Assembly (NCBI RefSeq): GCF_056746865.1
Contig: NZ_CM163382.1
Length of the DNA: 64,000 bases
Strand: one strand, 5' to 3'
Positions 18,816 through 30,261 of this stretch are shown piece by piece. Made by a program: the position numbers and the translations under genes. A model generated the notes under the pieces. That model saw nothing but the letters and a program-made list of their open reading frames with translations, ran no database searches and was not told the DNA's origin. How positions within the stretch are numbered: the stretch's first letter is position 1; each line of letters begins with the position of its first letter.

Positions 18816-19721
18816 CTATATTTCCAGACACCTGTTATCACTTAACCCATTACTGGCCCGCTGCCGTAGATATTCCCGTGGCGAGCGATAACCCAGTGCA
18901 CTATGCGGATGCCATTCGTTATAATGCTCGAACGCCTCTGCAAGGTTCTTTGCTGCCGTTAACCCGTCTGGTTTAGGCATGATACTGATGTAGTCACGCT
19001 TTATCGTTTTCACGAAGCTCTCTGCTATGCCGTTACTCTCCGGACTCCGCACCGCCGTGTTCTTCGGTTCAAGCCCCAACATCCGGGCAAACTGCCGTGT
19101 TTCATTAGCCCGGTAGCATGAACCATTATCCGTCAGCCACTCTACTGGAGACGCCGGAAGCTCGTTGCCGAAGCGGCGTTCCACCGCTCCCAGCATTACG
19201 TCCTGTACTGTTTCACTGTCGAAGCCGCCCGTAGTGACTGCCCAGTGCAGTGCCTCACGGTCACAGCAGTCCAGCGCGAACGTGACTCGCAGTTTTTCTC
19301 CGTTATCACAGCGGAACTCGAACCCGTCAGAGCACCATCGTTGATTGCTTTCTTTCACGGCCACTTTGCCAGTATGTGCCCGTTTCGATGGCGGTACAGC
19401 GGTTTTTCGCTCAAGCAACAGCGCATTCTGGCGCATGATCCGGTAAACACGTTTGGCATTGATCGCAGGCATACCATCAAGTTCGGCCTGTCTGCGAAGC
19501 AGCGCCCATACCCGACGATAACCATACGTGGGCAGCTCTCCGATAACATGGTGTATACGGAGAAGCACATCCGTATCATCTGAGTGACGGCTGCGGCGAC
19601 CATCTTTCCAGTCATCGGTTCGTCTGAGAATGACGTGCAACTGCGCACGCGACACCCGGAGACAACGGCTGACTAAGCTTACTCCCCATCCCCGGGCAAT
19701 AAGGGCGCGTGCGCTATCCAC
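18816..19721 (-). CDS. insD: IS2 transposase OrfB
   Basis: 301 aa DDE integrase core. Confidence 0.85.
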
Positions 19722-20696: not shown

Positions 20697-22168
<1,472 letters not shown>

Positions 22169-23182: not shown

Positions 23183-24667
23183 TTACTTCGCTCTCAGCTT
23201 ATTGTAGTGATAACCCGAGGTAAAAATACCAGAGACATCAGACAACTTTAAACTGGCTATCTGGGGAAGCAGAACATACATGGTTTTTCCTTCCGGCACG
23301 ACAGAAAGCCTGAACTGAGATTCAAGAATGTTCAGCAATGCGTTCAGTTTTTTCCTGTTTCTGAACCGGCCCGGGCCACACTGGAGAATATAATTTTTCC
23401 TGACACGGGGCGGGCATTCTCCGCGGCACTCCTCAATGAGCCAGTCGAACAGCTCCTCGGCGTCCTTCTGCTGCAGTTCAGATTCATCAGGTAACGCAAA
23501 TAATTTTTTATATTCATCTGTGTACCACGAACTTATTACGACAGCAGACGTCATGATATCGGCAGAGATTTTCCCTTCACCATAGCTGAAATACTGAAAT
23601 AACGCTGCAATTCTTGCAATGTTTTCTGTTTTTTTTGAAACATGTCCCCGAAACGGGCTTAAGGGTCCGGAAGGGGATAAATCCTGCTCCAGAACATTAT
23701 AGTGCTCAATAAATATTTTTTGCGCTTCAGGCGAAAAATGCAGACAATACCGTTCATCCTCACTGGATTTTTCAATACTGCCTCTGGCCAGTTCCATTAA
23801 TCGTTCATGAAATGCCGTTAATGATCCTCCCGGAATCACAGCTCCGTTAATAAAGCGTTTCCCCTGCGTGGTTGCAGGTTTACTGATAAGACAACGGGCA
23901 AGAAAACCACTGTCCCTGGCAACAGAACCTTTTCGCTCCATATATCGGTCAAAAAGACCGGGTTGCACCATGAGGGATAACGTCATTCTGGCATTTTCAA
24001 TCATCTGTTCGGGTTCATTCTTTCTGTCCACAGACAATACAGAGCCATCCCACATTTTGTTAATAAAAGGCAACTCAGACAGGGTATATCCATCAAATAT
24101 AATACCGGCTTCATCTGACATAATACCAACTGAACGCCATTTACCACAAAGCTGATTCTTAATTGCCGCAGTCGTGGCATCATTAAAAATGAATTTATAC
24201 CTCACAGGTTCTTCCGCACTGTTTTTCTGAAGTACTTCCAGTTGTCTGAGGGTTTCTGACTCATCCGCGCCTTTGCGGAGTTCTTTATTCAGTTTTGACA
24301 ACAATGCTTTTTTCTGAGCCTTTAAAAGCTCTTCCTTGTTTTTCCAGACAGCCAGTTCACTTTTGTATCTGGAATATAACTGCATCTCCTGCTGGTACAG
24401 GGGCTTCATTAATAATTTGTCCACTGCGGTTTTTCGTTCTCCGGACTCGGCAAGCGTCAGGAAAAAAAGAGAGACCGGCCCCCGCAGTGTATTCAGTCTG
24501 CAGACATCAATCAGATTCTGGCAGACAAGTGAAACAGCGCCCAGGGCAGACGCTGCCACAAGCCCAAGGGGAGCCTGCGTAATTTGCTGAGCTTCAATAA
24601 CGGCATCACGAATGAGTGGAGGCAGCGAACTCAGGGGAAACTCATCACAAGGCTGACCGAATGACAT
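23183..24667 (-). CDS. DUF3987-like protein (YfjI-like)
   Basis: 494 aa from MSFGQPCDEF...; resembles CP4-57 YfjI-type proteins; SD GAGG. Confidence 0.65.
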   Translation of the reverse strand: MSFGQPCDEFPLSSLPPLIRDAVIEAQQITQAPLGLVAASALGAVSLVCQNLIDVCRLNTLRGPVSLFFLTLAESGERKTAVDKLLMKPLYQQEMQLYSRYKSELAVWKNKEELLKAQKKALLSKLNKELRKGADESETLRQLEVLQKNSAEEPVRYKFIFNDATTAAIKNQLCGKWRSVGIMSDEAGIIFDGYTLSELPFINKMWDGSVLSVDRKNEPEQMIENARMTLSLMVQPGLFDRYMERKGSVARDSGFLARCLISKPATTQGKRFINGAVIPGGSLTAFHERLMELARGSIEKSSEDERYCLHFSPEAQKIFIEHYNVLEQDLSPSGPLSPFRGHVSKKTENIARIAALFQYFSYGEGKISADIMTSAVVISSWYTDEYKKLFALPDESELQQKDAEELFDWLIEECRGECPPRVRKNYILQCGPGRFRNRKKLNALLNILESQFRLSVVPEGKTMYVLLPQIASLKLSDVSGIFTSGYHYNKLRAK

Positions 24668-25897
24668 AGTAACCTCACTATACACAGATATAAAAGCACT
24701 GCAATTCTGGCTATTAATAGCAAAAATAGCAGTCAAATCAATATGAGGTAAAATTTTTTGTTGATTTAATGGTTAAATAATAACCACAGTGTATTTTGCT
24801 GCTGAAGAAAGACAAAATGAATCTGTGTGTCCCCTCCTTCCCTTCGGAGCACATCCACTATTCAAATTTTACACAACCACGTACGAACAAAAAGCATCAT
24901 CCCGGGTATTGCAGATACCGGTTTCCTGCCGGGAAGAATCATAAACAGAACACCGGGAATAACGCCTTCAGGAATCACCCCCCCTCCTGAAGAAGAATAA
25001 AATAAAGAAGACTACAGTTCCTGCACTGAATGCTGAGTACAATATTTTATGGACAGGATGACATTTTTATAAATAACAAAAACCATTTAATACTGATACA
25101 TCAATAAAATACTTCTTCCCTGCTGACACAGATAAAATGCACCATTTTTTCTTCAAATACTTCTGTATAATCGCCAGCCAATGATGAGAATGGATTAAAA
25201 TAACACTTCTTCGACAAACACAAAAACAGCCTTCATTTTACATCATCATCCAGTTTCAGTTAACCCCGGACGAGCGACAGTGTTTCAGTACAGGAATTAA
25301 AAGCCAGCTTTTGCTCAGTAAAACACACTCAACTAATAATATCTCAGCAGATATTATCCTGACCAGGACACCTCACATTACTGAATTCTCTTCCGACAGT
25401 ATCACTGCACAAATAAAAAAGAACGGGATAAATATTCAGACCGGAAGAATGGTGTCACAAAAGCATTTAATCATTACGCATGACCAGGAAGGGAAACACT
25501 TAACCACATGGTATCAACAGATATCATTACGTGTGCACTCTTATAAAAAACACACAGAAGAAGTAAGATAATTATAAACGTAAATTTAATATCTCCCACT
25601 GACATCTCCCCCACAATACACTAAAAAATACTCACAGCAGTAAACACAGATACACCTGATAATCATACAGCCGATAAATATTTTCCCCTTTACGGAGAAA
25701 TCAGCCTGCTGTTTAACAATAACGGCGTATTTTCATGGAAGGAGATCACCCAGTAACGGATAAGTCCTGATCTCCTTCATGTTAATACGCAACAATCCCA
25801 TCGATTCAAAACAATTTCAGACAGATATTATCTCCGTGAATCCCCCGCCACCTTTCCGGTGCGCGGGGTTTTGTCTTTTTTCACCGGGAATACATGT

Positions 25898-26770
25898 ATG
25901 AATCCGTCTGATGCCATTGAGGCAATTGAAAAACCGCTCTCCTCCCTGCCTTACTCACTTTCCCGTCACATCCTGGAACATCTGCGCAAACTCACCAGTC
26001 ACGAACCCGTGATTGGCATTATGGGTAAAAGCGGGGCCGGTAAATCCTCACTCTGTAATGCACTGTTTCAGGGGGAGGTCACCCCGGTCAGTGATGTTCA
26101 CGCCGGCACCCGGGAAGTGCGGCGCTTCCGTCTGAGTGGCCACGGTCACAGCATGGTTATCACTGACCTGCCCGGGGTGGGCGAGAGCCGGGACAGGGAT
26201 GCAGAGTATGAAGCCCTGTACCGTGACATTCTGCCCGAACTGGACCTGGTGCTGTGGCTGATTAAAGCCGATGACCGCGCCCTGTCTGTGGATGAGTATT
26301 TCTGGCGACACATCCTGCACCGGGGACATCAGCAGGTGCTGTTTGTGGTGACGCAGGCCGACAAAACGGAGCCCTGCCATGAATGGGATATGGCCGGCAT
26401 TCAGCCTTCTCCCGCACAGGCACAGAACATTCGGGAGAAAACGGAGGCGGTATTCCGTCTGTTCCGGCCCGTACATCCGGTTGTTGCCGTATCGGCCCGC
26501 ACCGGCTGGGAACTGGATACGCTGGTCAGTGCGCTAATGACAGCACTTCCCGACCATGCCGCCAGTCCCCTGATGACCCGCCTGCAGGACGAGCTGCGCA
26601 CGGAATCTGTCCGCGCTCAGGCCCGTGAACAGTTTACCGGTGCGGTGGACCGGATATTTGACACGGCGGAGAGCGTCTGTGTTGCCTCTGTTGCCCGTAC
26701 GGTTCTGCGTGCCGTCCGTGACACGGTGGTCTCTGTTGCCCGCGCTGTATGGAACTGGATTTTCTTCTGA
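25898..26770 (+). CDS. YeeP/YfjP/YkfA-family GTPase
   Basis: 290 aa from MNPSDAIEAIE...; P-loop GKSGAGKSS; precedes Ag43 as in CP4-44. Confidence 0.75.
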   Translation: MNPSDAIEAIEKPLSSLPYSLSRHILEHLRKLTSHEPVIGIMGKSGAGKSSLCNALFQGEVTPVSDVHAGTREVRRFRLSGHGHSMVITDLPGVGESRDRDAEYEALYRDILPELDLVLWLIKADDRALSVDEYFWRHILHRGHQQVLFVVTQADKTEPCHEWDMAGIQPSPAQAQNIREKTEAVFRLFRPVHPVVAVSARTGWELDTLVSALMTALPDHAASPLMTRLQDELRTESVRAQAREQFTGAVDRIFDTAESVCVASVARTVLRAVRDTVVSVARAVWNWIFF

Positions 26771-26884: not shown

Positions 26885-26928
26885 AAACGATCGATAAAAC
26901 AGGTATCGATCGTTGCTATCGATCGTTT
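26885..26928 (+). promoter_or_regulatory. Ag43 phase-variation switch (three GATC sites, OxyR/Dam)
   Basis: ACGATCGATAAAACAGGTATCGATCGTTGCTATCGATCGTTTAT about 220 bp upstream of flu start; GATC at about 26889, 26908, 26921. Confidence 0.7.
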
Positions 26929-27141
26929 ATAGTGGTTAATGGTCTGCGAAAAGGCAGCTGAATCTCTTCATCATGCAGAACGGAATTGCACACAACGGAC
27001 TGATACTTCTCTGGCGGATGAGAGAGGGGAAGCATTTATGTCCGGGAAAAACCACTTTATCTGAGCATGCTGTTTTGTACCTGCCGGTATCCACATTTGT
27101 GGGTACCGGCTTTTTTATTCACCCTCTGTAAGGAAAAGCTG

Positions 27142-30100
27142 ATGAAACGACATCTGAACACCAGCTACAGGCTGGTATGGAATCACATTACGGGCACCCT
27201 GGTGGTGGCCTCCGAACTGGCCCGCTCACGGGGAAAACGCGCTGGTGTGGCGGTTGCGCTGTCTCTTGCTGCTGTCACATCAGTCCCGGCACTGGCTGCT
27301 GACAAGGTTGTACAGGCGGGAGAAACCGTGAACGACGGAACACTGACAAATCATGACAACCAGATTGTCCTCGGTACGGCCAACGGAATGACCATCAGTA
27401 CCGGTCTGGAGTATGGGCCGGATAACGAGGCCAATACCGGCGGACAATGGATACAAAATGGCGGTATCGCCAACAACACTACTGTCACCGGTGGTGGTCT
27501 TCAGAGAGTGAATGCCGGAGGAAGCGTTTCAGACACGGTTATCAGTGCCGGAGGCGGACAGAGCCTTCAGGGGCAGGCAGTGAACACCACTCTGAACGGC
27601 GGTGAGCAGTGGGTACATGAAGGCGGGATTGCAACGGGTACCGTCATTAATGAGAAGGGCTGGCAGGCCATCAAATCCGGCGCAGTGGCAACCGACACGG
27701 TTGTGAATACCGGCGCGGAAGGGGGACCGGATGCGGAAAATGGTGATACCGGGCAGACCGTCTACGGAGATGCCGTACGCACCACCATCAATAAAAATGG
27801 TCGTCAGATTGTGGCTGCTGAAGGAACGGCAAATACCACTGTGGTTTATGCCGGCGGCGACCAGACTGTACATGGTCACGCACTGGATACCACGCTGAAT
27901 GGGGGGTACCAGTATGTGCACAACGGCGGTACGGCGTCTGGCACTGTTGTAAACAGTGACGGCTGGCAGATTGTCAAAAACGGGGGTGTGGCCGGGAATA
28001 CCACCGTTAATCAGAAGGGCAGACTGCAGGTGGACGCCGGTGGTACAGCCACGAATGTCACCCTGAAGCAGGGCGGCGCACTGGTTACCAGTACGGCTGC
28101 AACCGTTACCGGCATAAACCGCCTGGGAGCATTCTCTGTTGTGGAGGGTAAAGCTGATAATGTCGTACTGGAAAATGGCGGACGCCTGGATGTGCTGACC
28201 GGACACACAGCCACTAATACCCGCGTGGATGATGGCGGAACGCTGGATGTCCGCAACGGTGGCACCGCCACCACCGTATCCATGGGAAATGGCGGTGTAC
28301 TGCTGGCCGATTCCGGTGCCGCTGTCAGTGGTACCCGGAGCGACGGAAAGGCATTCAGTATCGGAGGCGGTCAGGCGGATGCCCTGATGCTGGAAAAAGG
28401 CAGTTCATTCACGCTGAACGCCGGTGATACGGCCACGGATACCACGGTAAATGGCGGACTGTTCACCGCCAGGGGCGGCACACTGGCGGGCACCACCACG
28501 CTGAATAACGGCGCCATACTTACCCTTTCCGGGAAGACGGTGAACAACGATACCCTGACCATCCGTGAAGGCGATGCACTCCTGCAGGGAGGCTCTCTCA
28601 CCGGTAACGGCAGCGTGGAAAAATCAGGAAGTGGCACACTCACTGTCAGCAACACCACACTCACCCAGAAAGCCGTCAACCTGAATGAAGGCACGCTGAC
28701 GCTGAACGACAGTACCGTCACCACGGATGTCATTGCTCAGCGCGGTACAGCCCTGAAGCTGACCGGCAGCACTGTGCTGAACGGTGCCATTGACCCCACG
28801 AATGTCACTCTCGCCTCTGGTGCCACCTGGAATATTCCCGATAACGCCACGGTGCAGTCGGTGGTGGATGACCTCAGCCATGCCGGACAGATTCATTTCA
28901 CCTCCACCCGCACAGGGAAGTTCGTACCGGCAACCCTGAAAGTGAAAAACCTGAACGGACAGAATGGCACCATCAGCCTGCGTGTACGCCCGGATATGGC
29001 ACAGAACAATGCTGACAGACTGGTCATTGACGGTGGCAGGGCAACCGGAAAAACCATCCTGAACCTGGTGAACGCCGGCAACAGTGCGTCGGGGCTGGCG
29101 ACCAGCGGTAAGGGTATTCAGGTGGTGGAAGCCATTAACGGTGCCACCACGGAGGAAGGGGCCTTTATCCAGGGGAATAAGCTGCAGGCCGGTGCCTTTA
29201 ACTACTCCCTCAACCGGGACAGTGATGAGAGCTGGTATCTGCGCAGTGAAAATGCTTATCGTGCTGAAGTCCCCCTGTATACATCCATGCTGACACAGGC
29301 AATGGACTATGACCGGATTCTGGCAGGCTCCCGCAGCCATCAGACCGGTGTAAACGGTGAAAATAACAGCGTCCGTCTCAGCATTCAGGGCGGTCATCTC
29401 GGTCACGATAACAACGGCGGTATTGCCCGTGGAGCCACGCCGGAAAGCAGCGGCAGCTATGGCTTCGTCCGTCTGGAGGGTGACCTGCTCAGAACAGAGG
29501 TTGCCGGTATGTCTCTGACGACAGGGGTGTATGGTGCCGCAGGCCATTCTTCCGTTGATGTTAAGGATGATGACGGTTCCCGCGCCGGCACGGTCCGGGA
29601 TGATGCCGGCAGCCTGGGCGGATACCTGAATCTGACACACACGTCCTCCGGCCTGTGGGCTGACATTGTGGCACAGGGAACCCGCCACAGCATGAAAGCG
29701 TCATCGGACAATAACGACTTCCGCGCCCGGGGCTGGGGCTGGCTGGGCTCACTGGAAACCGGTCTGCCCTTCAGTATCACTGACAACCTGATGCTGGAGC
29801 CACAACTGCAGTATACCTGGCAGGGACTTTCCCTGGATGACGGCCAGGATAACGCCGGTTATGTGAAGTTCGGGCATGGCAGTGCACAACATGTGCGTGC
29901 CGGTTTCCGTCTGGGCAGCCACAACGATATGAGCTTTGGTGAAGGCACCTCATCCCGTGACACCCTGCGCGACAGTGCAAAACACCGTGTGCGTGAACTG
30001 CCGGTGAACTGGTGGGTACAGCCTTCTGTTATCCGCACTTTCAGCTCCCGGGGTGACATGAGCATGGGTACAGCCGCAGCCGGCAGTAACATGACGTTCT

Positions 30101-30261
30101 CACCGTCCCGGAATGGCACGTCACTGGACCTGCAGGCCGGACTGGAAGCCCGTGTCCGGGAAAATATCACCCTGGGCGTTCAGGCCGGTTATGCCCACAG
30201 TGTCAGCGGCAGCAGCGCTGAAGGTTATAACGGTCAGGCCACGCTGAATGTGACTTTCTGA
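27142..30261 (+). CDS. flu: Antigen 43 self-associating autotransporter adhesin
   Basis: 1039 aa from [33 protein letters not shown] (extended signal peptide); repetitive passenger; C-terminal barrel ending ...NVTF. Confidence 0.9.

Follow-up and report, generated by a model that had tools for sequence, protein, structure and literature searches.

The 1,230-nt gene-free gap between yfjI (minus strand) and a GTPase gene (plus strand) is interpreted as non-coding, AT-rich spacer DNA of a CP4-type genomic island, a composite of three parts differing in origin and importance (probability about 0.7). Its first ~1 kb (24668..25723) would be lineage-specific ORF-free DNA, presumably with the yfjI promoter. 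A short transposon relic follows, and then a ~95-nt module (25805..25897), which is probably a self-contained promoter-leader and the true 5' edge of the conserved island core. The best reading of the gap overall is a silent AT-rich spacer joined to a conserved promoter with a promoter-proximal attenuator or insulator. Read in this way, the gap is non-coding filler confined to one island lineage, and one compact promoter and terminator module, found from Escherichia to Pectobacterium and Xenorhabdus, heads the core of CP4-like islands carrying Ag43 adhesins, antirestriction genes and CbtA toxins. Through the module it would be possible to ask, precisely and with simple tests, how these very common islands keep their core operon low or turn it on. 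Coordinates refer to the window, the whole 64-kb stretch of DNA that was analysed (Table 1).

Table 1 Position and strand of the features in and beside the gap
Feature	Position	Strand	Description
YfjI-family gene (DUF3987), left border of the gap	23183..24667	-	Pfam DUF3987, E 1.3e-95; PGAP annotation, identical locus L001
Non-coding gap, yfjI to GTPase gene	24668..25897		AT-rich; plus strand rich in A and C
Perfect 12-bp palindrome GCTATTAATAGC	24710..24721		43-54 nt upstream of the yfjI ATG
Second hairpin of the preliminary description	24966..24992		8-nt inverted repeat, 11-nt loop; judged chance
boxA-like 13-mer TGCTGTTTAACAA	25707..25719	+	One mismatch to rrn boxA TGCTCTTTAACAA; weak lead
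68-bp miniature inverted-repeat element, ISEc12 (IS21-family) left end fused to right end	25724..25791		Match of the ends
Predicted sigma-70-type promoter of the GTPase operon	25805..25831	+	-35 TTCAAA 25805-25810, 15-nt spacer, -10 TATTAT 25826-25831
Promoter-proximal GC-rich hairpin and T-run, intrinsic-terminator-like	25843..25881	+	17 nt before the ATG
YkfA/YfjP/YeeP-family GTPase gene, conserved island core gene 1	25898..26770	+	Pfam MMR_HSR1, E 8.9e-15; L001 annotation

The probable promoter-leader module

The promoter hexamers agree with the sigma-70 consensus at 4/6 (-35) and 5/6 (-10) positions, the 15-nt spacing lies within the 15-19 nt range, and GTPase transcription is predicted to start at ~25838/25839. 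Our promoter scan took 16-18 nt spacers only and so passed over this site; it returned 5 promoter-like sites in the gap, against 3.6 +/- 2.3 in shuffles. The hairpin itself (25843-25868) folds with about -18.5 kcal/mol and is followed by the T-run TTTTGTCTTTTTT (25869-25881). The plus-strand fold of 25700-25900 had z = -4.3, with the relic and terminator hairpins both in the minimum-energy structure.

Within E. coli, conservation starts at ~25800-25809 regardless of the upstream DNA (10,576 places in 4,269 genomes). Of 45 loci, 20 have one copy each of the motif TTTCAGAYAGATATYATC, always at the same spacing ahead of the GTPase ATG. Every YkfA/YfjP/YeeP-type GTPase gene examined is preceded by the module, which was found in at least 12 genera besides Escherichia (Citrobacter, Yersinia, Hafnia, Photorhabdus, Serratia, Edaphovirga, Salmonella, Enterobacter, Lelliottia, Cedecea, Pectobacterium and Xenorhabdus) and in 3 viral-catalogue contigs. 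The -10 TAT(T/C)AT and the 15-nt spacer length are invariant in 24/24 modules. The -35 varies from module to module and is weak (TTCAAA, CTCCAA, ATCAAA, among others), and 15 nt is a suboptimal spacing. The near-invariance of the spacer sequence goes beyond what sigma-70 alone explains.

The hairpin is likewise present in 24/24 modules, where its stem has five or more unrelated sequences, and the T-run is present in 22/24; two Pectobacterium modules lack the T-run but keep the hairpin, and termination may therefore not be the universal role. When each sequence was folded separately, the hairpin held its position while the stems differed, so that structure is kept while sequence turns over. RNAalifold gave -6 kcal/mol and 4 compensated pairs for the leader, values that understate the structure because MAFFT misregistered the stems. 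In other islands the module hairpin stands 25-45 nt past the stop codon of the upstream gene.

In vitro, RpoD holoenzyme binds two spacers of E. coli K-12, rnlB-yfjP and perR-ykfA (genomic SELEX, spacer-level resolution), and the promoters TTGAAA-15-TATCAT were assigned to yfjP and ykfA in silico by the same authors (Shimada et al. 2014, PMC3946193). These are the homologous site to the promoter in the window. An omega-subunit ChIP paper has yfjP in gene lists only, and in the literature supplements searched no transcription-start or 3'-end data for the yfjP/ykfA promoters were found. Inspection of the module by eye gave no convincing match to the RfaH ops, CRP, IHF, Lrp or alternative-sigma consensus.

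It had been proposed in the preliminary description that the gap could host divergent promoters. The GTPase side of this proposal holds, in the form of the conserved TTCAAA-N15-TATTAT; for yfjI a minus-strand promoter is expected and none was convincingly located. A minus-strand reading of the module motif (GATAAT) was rejected for want of a conserved -35. Also rejected was a 40-aa ORF at 25779..25901, which has no Shine-Dalgarno sequence, starts inside a transposon arm and spans both promoter and terminator; it is intact in relatives because this stretch hardly varies. The ORF overlaps the GTPase ATG (ATGA).

In the mechanism we propose, the weak sigma-70 promoter (TTCAAA-15-TATTAT) would start transcripts ~4 nt before the stable hairpin and U-run, where most would be expected to end after ~40 nt. 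Only read-through RNA would reach the GTPase, Ag43, DUF932, antirestriction and toxin-antitoxin genes, and the hairpin would also halt transcription arriving from upstream. The read-through may simply be a constitutive leak. Rather improbably, the module may act as a regulated gate with a factor at AATTTCAGAYAGATATYATC and read-through, or may yield a ~40-nt leader small RNA, switching on the island core. Under the first of these linked ideas, a Q- or AlpA-like factor might sit on the near-invariant sequence between and around the hexamers; for the second, the 5' end of the ~40-nt leader (GUGAAUCC) is conserved across genera. Were either true, the module would switch the GTPase, Ag43, DUF932, antirestriction, RadC-like and CbtA/CbeA genes across CP4-type islands of the Enterobacterales, and the AT-rich 1 kb upstream would remain a passive spacer.

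The AT-rich spacer

The left border of the gap, 24667, is the YfjI/DUF3987 N-terminus on the minus strand at the PGAP start, and the GTPase ATG lies at 25898. The long AT-rich non-coding region described earlier is thereby confirmed, at 1,230 nt as against 1,161. Its GC content is 0.38 compared with 0.51 for the window, where 0.5% of windows of the same length are equally AT-rich, and 24668-25805 has a GC skew of -0.21 and an AT skew of +0.18. DNA of 38% GC is of the kind that E. coli would be expected to keep transcriptionally quiet. The H-NS high-affinity motif TCGATAAATT has 60 matches in the 64 kb, compared with 55 expected, and is uninformative.

The region is carried by 1,853 E. coli genomes, and among the full-length matches listed 14/14 had no annotated feature beneath. 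The gap exists in two lineages of ~80% identity, separated by indels of 1, 2, 3, 6, 7, 29 and 71 nt. That only weak small ORFs are present was equally confirmed, as no ORF of at least 15 aa in 24668-25690 is intact across the four variants compared. The largest, of 86 aa (25311..25571), is broken by two of these indels, of 29 and 71 nt, in the sister lineage (L002/L044), and by a 6-nt deletion in a further variant (L045). The stretch 24990-25300 is 90-97% identical in lineages whose divergence near yfjI is 25-38%, which could reflect constraint of some kind. Close to yfjI, the palindrome GCTATTAATAGC shows one T/C difference between the lineages, within flanks of 62-75% identity, and is a candidate operator or promoter region of yfjI.

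Rfam was searched at permissive thresholds, over 8 kb and then over the gap alone. This covariance-model scan, suggested in the preliminary description, gave no family in the gap (best match 24 bits against a threshold of 52); the only match passing was IS102/IsrC at 26887-27123, outside it. Besides the relic and terminator hairpins, the fold scan returned one weaker stretch (25625-25724, plus strand, z -4.0). With no Rfam family and few folds, the small RNA suggested for the gap finds no support, the exception being the possible ~40-nt terminated leader.

In 11 other loci the place of the gap is taken by plus-strand genes of similar length (~0.9-1.2 kb) and GC content (32-41%) that end at the promoter and encode a fast-evolving protein of 300-400 aa whose C-terminal domain is ribbon-helix-helix-like, and the gap might be a decayed gene of this slot. 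We consider this improbable. Neither tblastn with 11 family members nor the family HMM found a protein relic in any frame of the gap (best E 0.5-0.8). The slot genes have G>C on their coding strand (skew 0 to +0.24), whereas the gap has C>G (-0.21), and it is instead tightly linked to the divergent yfjI. A common operator for these upstream ribbon-helix-helix-like proteins, of which WP_000250228.1 from a sister island is an example, is also unlikely, since the predicted DNA-reading strand is not conserved.

Slightly less credible still is a long untranslated GTPase leader on the plus strand, starting several hundred nt upstream and protected from Rho by boxA and a hairpin as in rrn and lambda nut. 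The boxA-like 13-mer is the sole such match in the 64 kb (0.08 expected), has the orientation required and is kept in the two lineages. A Rho-sensitive RNA would be expected to have much C, little G and almost no structure, and the plus strand fits this (skew -0.21; folds of -2.5 to -10 kcal/mol per 100 nt). However, the motif was found post hoc among several tried, and against GCUCUUUAACAA with its conserved GCUCUU core, the window sequence GCUGUUUAACAA mismatches in the core. No other genus and no other E. coli context has the motif ahead of the module, the neighbouring hairpin is a transposon relic and not boxB, and the promoter-like sites of the gap are no commoner than in shuffles (5 vs 3.6 +/- 2.3, as above). 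Nus complexes, moreover, chiefly counter Rho and not the intrinsic terminator downstream. Four bases separate the 13-mer from the left end of the relic.

The inverted repeats and the ISEc12 relic

The preliminary description had singled out a 10-bp perfect inverted repeat with two GATC sites, and the repeat proved slightly longer, with 11-nt arms (25738-25748 and 25768-25778) that are 100% complementary and are extended by a 13-nt arm pair of 85% (25725-25737 and 25778-25790). The GATC sites at 25744 and 25769 are the only two in the gap. Only 0.3% of dinucleotide shuffles of the gap contain an inverted repeat with perfect 11-nt arms and a loop of 3-40 nt, and the one observed is therefore not due to chance.

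Judged by its termini, 25724..25791 is a relic of ISEc12 made of the two terminal inverted repeats alone: GGCGTATTTTCATGGAAGGAGATCACC...TGATCTCCTTCATGTTAATACGCA match the IRL and IRR of this element (L043/L049), and the GGAGATCA motif belongs to its terminal repeats. The parent is ~2.6 kb long with istA and istB, and the relic is 68 bp with no transposase. A full ISEc12 in ypfH runs from TGCGTATTTTCATGAAAGGAGATCAC... to ...GATCTCCTTCACGGTAATACGCA and is flanked by the 5-bp target duplication CCTTG. Matches to the relic, counting whole copies and single arms, number 10,866 across 3,313 E. coli genomes, and 775 of these matches are plasmid-borne. End-only copies of 64-68 bp lie in unrelated places, by the cdt genes on pVir68, on a Yokenella plasmid, near a restriction-modification locus and elsewhere, and one 64-bp copy (L042) has the target duplication CCAGG on both flanks. 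The copy in the window carries a T-to-G change at its first base and has no intact target duplication (flanks ATAAC and ACAAT), so it is best termed a decayed member. It is probably immobile, and probably old given that it is common to both gap lineages.

The preliminary description had also considered a Dam, H-NS or regulator site and had tied its proposals to conservation of the repeats in homologous islands. In L002 neither GATC site survives, nor does the inner stem, while the promoter module there is unchanged, and an arm of the second hairpin is mutated in L002/L044. It is accordingly most improbable that the GATC repeat is a Dam-methylation or regulator switch like the OxyR/Dam system of agn43, governing the GTPase operon or yfjI, even though its two GATCs are symmetric within a perfect 11-nt repeat, 14 nt upstream of the -35, and the repeat exceeds chance in shuffles. 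The sequence is an ISEc12 end pair dispersed over thousands of unrelated places, the actual OxyR/Dam region, with three GATCs, is found 1 kb further downstream (26889-26924), and in every other context the promoter module would appear to work without the repeat. The GATC hairpin is transposon debris, and a false lead is thus removed.

The second hairpin noted earlier, with 8-nt perfect arms CTTCAGGA (24966-24973) and TCCTGAAG (24985-24992), does exist as a repeat; it is placed at chance level because 51% of dinucleotide shuffles have at least one such repeat and because the sister lineage has a mutated left arm. No T-run accompanies it on either strand. Some satellite elements keep their origin beside a replication gene, and here AT-rich DNA adjoins the gene of YfjI (DUF3987, primase/helicase-like), but a replication or transfer origin used by YfjI is very unlikely, as the gap has no iterons or tandem repeats beyond chance, its direct-repeat families are all two-copy, short and imperfect, and its one DnaA-box-like 9-mer is at chance level.

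Comparison with known systems

The relic resembles MITEs and other end-only IS derivatives in keeping the two terminal repeats of its parent without a transposase, at 64-68 bp, on chromosomes and plasmids, and at least one short copy is flanked by a 5-bp target duplication of the length that ISEc12 also makes; it departs from them in its altered first base and missing duplication. With the OxyR/Dam phase-variation region of agn43 (IsrC/IS102 locus) the gap shares GATC sites in a regulatory spacer of the same island. That region, in contrast, has three GATCs in a known arrangement and is separate from the gap, whose own GATCs are a transposon end and unconserved.

Promoter-proximal intrinsic terminators are known to gate operons in lambda, at PR'-tR' with Q, and in Pseudomonas aeruginosa, where AlpA acts at alpB; lambda Q binds between the -35 and the -10. 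The module is like these systems in combining a promoter, a terminator within tens of nt and a long mobile-element operon, and like the Q system in the unusual conservation of its sequence from -35 to -10, where Q binds. It is unlike them in that no Q-like or other antiterminator gene was identified and no convincing -10-like pause element follows the start.

The closest counterparts are the 'constitutive promoters' of yfjP and ykfA in K-12 (PMC3946193). The allele in the window differs from them in its weaker -35 (TTCAAA), its -10 (TATTAT) and its hairpin sequence, and the upstream context is rnlB or perR in K-12 and the yfjI gap here. The two share the homologous position, the 15-nt spacing, the -10 family, the downstream hairpin, the T-run and the GTPase start.

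The predicted promoter and hairpin before the GTPase gene

The window holds a CP4-type E. coli genomic island, in which a gap of 1,230 nt (24668..25897) separates yfjI from a GTPase gene. Its GC content is 38% vs 51% for the window, an AT-richness reached by only 0.5% of equal-length windows. In strain FDAARGOS_497 the identical stretch carries the same annotation with no feature inside the gap. The AT-rich non-coding region of the preliminary description was borne out. At least 80% of the gap region is present in 1,853 E. coli genomes, and no annotated features were found under it in the full-length matches listed. The 1.16-kb region is unremarkable as a finding. Two minus-strand IS3-family transposase ORFs with rve/HTH_21 domains (18816-19721 and 20879-21925) lie where the reference island L001 carries an AlpA-like regulator, so in the window insertion sequences disrupt the arm of the island on the upstream side of yfjI.

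Features of the gap, its neighbours and the genes occupying its place in other islands
Feature	Position	Strand	Remarks
YfjI/DUF3987 gene	23183..24667	minus	Pfam E 1.3e-95
boxA-like 13-mer	25707-25719		one base off rrn boxA, core mismatch
Predicted promoter	TTCAAA 25805-25810, TATTAT 25826-25831	plus	15 nt between hexamers
Hairpin	25843-25868		-18.5 kcal/mol
U-run	25869-25881		directly after hairpin
YkfA/YfjP/YeeP-family GTPase gene	25898..26770	plus	MMR_HSR1
IsrC/IS102 RNA region	26887..27123		3' of GTPase gene, Rfam 73 bits
Ag43	27067..30261		3' of GTPase gene; DUF932 gene also downstream
Upstream-slot genes (equivalent to window ~24900-25800)	L004:2094-3011, L009:2955-3875, L011:2999-3916, L014:2986-3900, L015:3032-3916, L020:2730-3845, L021:2690-3895, L023:2832-3917, L035:2872-3891		comparison loci

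Conservation upstream of the E. coli GTPase genes begins abruptly at ~25800-25809, regardless of the DNA further upstream (10,576 places, 4,269 genomes). GTPase homologues were fetched from one genome per species (proteins 45-98% identical to that of the window), and came from Escherichia albertii, Citrobacter, Yersinia, Hafnia, Photorhabdus, Serratia, Edaphovirga, Salmonella, Enterobacter, Lelliottia, Cedecea, Pectobacterium and Xenorhabdus. Every locus whose gene start is intact shared one anatomy: a near-invariant AATAATTTCAGAYAGATATYATC is followed, after ~10-20 nt, by a GC-rich hairpin and a T-run, and a few purine-rich bases then lead to the ATG. Each locus had the motif exactly once, at a constant position, and the window had it a single time (0.03 expected); it again preceded a GTPase-type leader or gene in three viral-catalogue contigs. 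Interpreted as a promoter, the motif gives the hexamers TTCAAA and TATTAT, 15 nt apart.

TTGAAA-15-TATCAT stands at the homologous position before the K-12 paralogues yfjP and ykfA, and is listed by Shimada et al. among ‘constitutive promoters’ (PMC3946193). In genomic SELEX the rnlB-yfjP and perR-ykfA spacers were bound by RpoD holoenzyme alone, and the hexamers were assigned afterwards by in-silico search (PMC3946193). Across 24 copies of the ~95-nt module (25805..25897 in the window), the -10 and the 15-nt spacing were constant and the -35 was weak and variable; the near-invariant spacer sequence leaves room for a bound factor. Of the divergent promoters proposed earlier, the one on the GTPase side is upheld by the conserved motif and by RpoD binding to the K-12 paralogous spacers, and the one on the yfjI side is only inferred, possibly near the conserved palindrome GCTATTAATAGC.

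A hairpin was present in 24/24 modules and its sequence turns over, the stems being of at least five unrelated kinds (CCCCGCCACC.../...GGTGCGCGGGG, CCCCGCATCC.../...GGATTGCGGGG, CCCCCGAAGCC.../...GGCTCGGGGG, AACGGCGAATCC.../...GGATTCGCCGTT and GTGGCGG.../...CCGCCAC). A T-run followed it in 22 of the 24, the two exceptions being from Pectobacterium. Counted from the predicted start (~25838/25839), hairpin and U-run would span ~+5 to +43. On the best-supported reading, a weak constitutive promoter is followed by a promoter-proximal intrinsic terminator at which most transcripts would end, and this would keep the island core operon low. The same terminator would shield the operon from upstream transcription, so that in the window any spurious plus-strand transcription arising in the AT-rich gap would not reach the GTPase gene; in islands with a gene in the upstream slot, the hairpin sits where the terminator of that gene would be expected.

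A second recurrent pairing, of GUGAA with UUCAC, is predicted in the read-through RNA, where the 5' end would be paired with the bases just before the ribosome-binding site. The leader 5' end GUGAAUCC (25839-25846) is conserved across genera, whereas the following hairpin is not, and it is able to pair with UUCAC just past the T-run (25881-25889), beside the ribosome-binding site. This 5' end could form a protective stem, take part in translational control or serve as the seed in a short terminated RNA.

Origin of the GATC inverted repeat

The perfect inverted repeat with two GATC sites seen in the preliminary description was confirmed, with arms of 11 nt (25738-25748 and 25768-25778) extended by a 13-nt arm pair at 85%; 0.3% of dinucleotide shuffles held a perfect repeat that long. 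Both GATC sites in the gap lie within its arms. Irrespective of the island, matches to the surrounding 64-70 nt lay on ~20 conjugative plasmids of E. coli and on one Yokenella plasmid, and a dedicated search located the sequence, as whole copies or single arms, at 10,866 places across 3,313 E. coli genomes (at most 17 per genome, 775 on plasmids). Single-arm matches led to ypfH, where a complete ISEc12 of the IS21 family is inserted (left end TGCGTATTTTCATGAAAGGAGATCACTCAATAAC, right end ...CCGATCTCCTTCACGGTAATACGCA), flanked by a 5-bp duplication, CCTTG. The 64-68-bp copies in several loci consist of nothing but the joined left and right ends of ISEc12, and one such copy, in locus L042, is bordered by its own 5-bp duplication, CCAGG. 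The window hairpin (25724..25791) is such a left-end/right-end copy, with its first base mutated and an intact duplication absent.

Since GGAGATCA is repeated within the ISEc12 ends, the transposon brings the GATC sites with it. Both have been lost from the sister lineage L002, which reads GATATC and GCCC instead; its inner stem is disrupted, and the adjoining promoter is unchanged. The dispersed ISEc12 origin and this loss leave the proposed Dam, H-NS or regulator site unsupported. Dam control is expected instead at 26889-26924, where three GATC sites in the known agn43 OxyR/Dam arrangement follow the GTPase gene and precede Ag43, inside the IsrC/IS102 match. A second, different IS21-like miniature element of 71 bp (TACG flanks, ends TGCGTATTCC... 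and ...CCATTTTGCA, inner palindrome CGATCACGGTTTGGCCAAACCGTGATCG) was found in one gap lineage only (L002, ~6750-6820, and L044), at the equivalent of window ~25474. Related single ends also occur in UTI89-type islands (L039, L040), in the interval that separates Ag43 from the DUF932 gene.

The body of the gap and the upstream slot

The four gap variants form two lineages, ~80% identical, with indels of 1, 2, 3, 6, 7, 29 and 71 nt. No ORF of at least 15 aa was intact in all four across 24668-25690, in agreement with the weak small ORFs described earlier, and no Pfam match was found for an 86-aa ORF. The second hairpin-like repeat (24967..24993) did not hold up: it is an 8-nt repeat (24966-24973 / 24985-24992) with similar repeats in half of the shuffles and a left arm mutated in relatives, and is regarded as chance. 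The gap had no tandem repeats or iterons, and one DnaA-like box at chance level; the frequency of promoter-like sites did not exceed that of shuffles, a scan for an H-NS motif was uninformative, and the covariance-model scan proposed as a check found no Rfam family.

In a sliding fold scan, structure was clearly non-random at three places, namely the transposon relic, the terminator hairpin and a weaker plus-strand stretch (25625-25724, z -4.0); a segment around a 9-bp palindrome (25336-25357) was borderline (z -2.8, minus strand). Plus-strand RNA of 25000-25620 is predicted to be nearly unstructured. The plus strand of 24668-25805 has an excess of A and C (GC skew -0.21, AT skew +0.18), with the C>G skew deepest at 25500-25700 (-0.38). 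Plus-strand gap RNA would thus be C-rich, G-poor and unstructured, like a Rho-loading site, and the gap may be subject to H-NS/Rho silencing. A Nus-type site at the boxA-like 13-mer is a weak alternative, as its mismatch falls in the core, it is absent from every other context compared, and just four bases separate it from the relic's left end.

Identity to L002/L044 was 90-97% in 24990-25300 and just 62-75% in the yfjI-proximal 24640-24870. The former stretch holds a perfect TATAAT (25166-25171), and no conserved ORF or structure was found in it; the similarity could reflect constraint or recombination. At 24710-24732, 43-65 nt upstream of the yfjI start, the perfect palindrome GCTATTAATAGC (24710-24721) is followed by AAAAATAGCAG, with one or two base differences between lineages despite diverged flanks; this stretch may serve yfjI as an operator.

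Most other islands and genera have, directly upstream of the GTPase promoter, an AT-rich, fast-evolving plus-strand gene of 300-400 aa in this slot, whose stop codon often lies within AAATAA just 5' of the promoter motif. The proteins have no Pfam, PHROG or NCBIfam family and a mutual identity of only 20-33%. All have a C-terminal domain of ~60 aa with weak likeness to ribbon-helix-helix repressors/antitoxins (profile matches to MazE4, ORF56 and CopG with E 0.005 to 0.3, MazE4 at 0.005; Pfam RepB-RCR_reg, Arc and RHH_1). Their predicted DNA-reading strand is not conserved, and a common operator is therefore unlikely. The gap was also considered as a remnant of such a gene; tblastn and a family HMM detected no trace, and the base skews are opposite (gap C>G vs slot genes G>C).

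Relation to known systems

The relic hairpin belongs to a known kind, the end-only insertion-sequence derivative, and is a decayed example of it. The module at the 3' edge of the gap is a modest, testable lead. Its promoter is already listed for the K-12 paralogues; a conserved pairing of promoter and terminator was not found described in the literature, and its breadth across Enterobacterales appears unreported. As a type of leader control, such a pairing is familiar.
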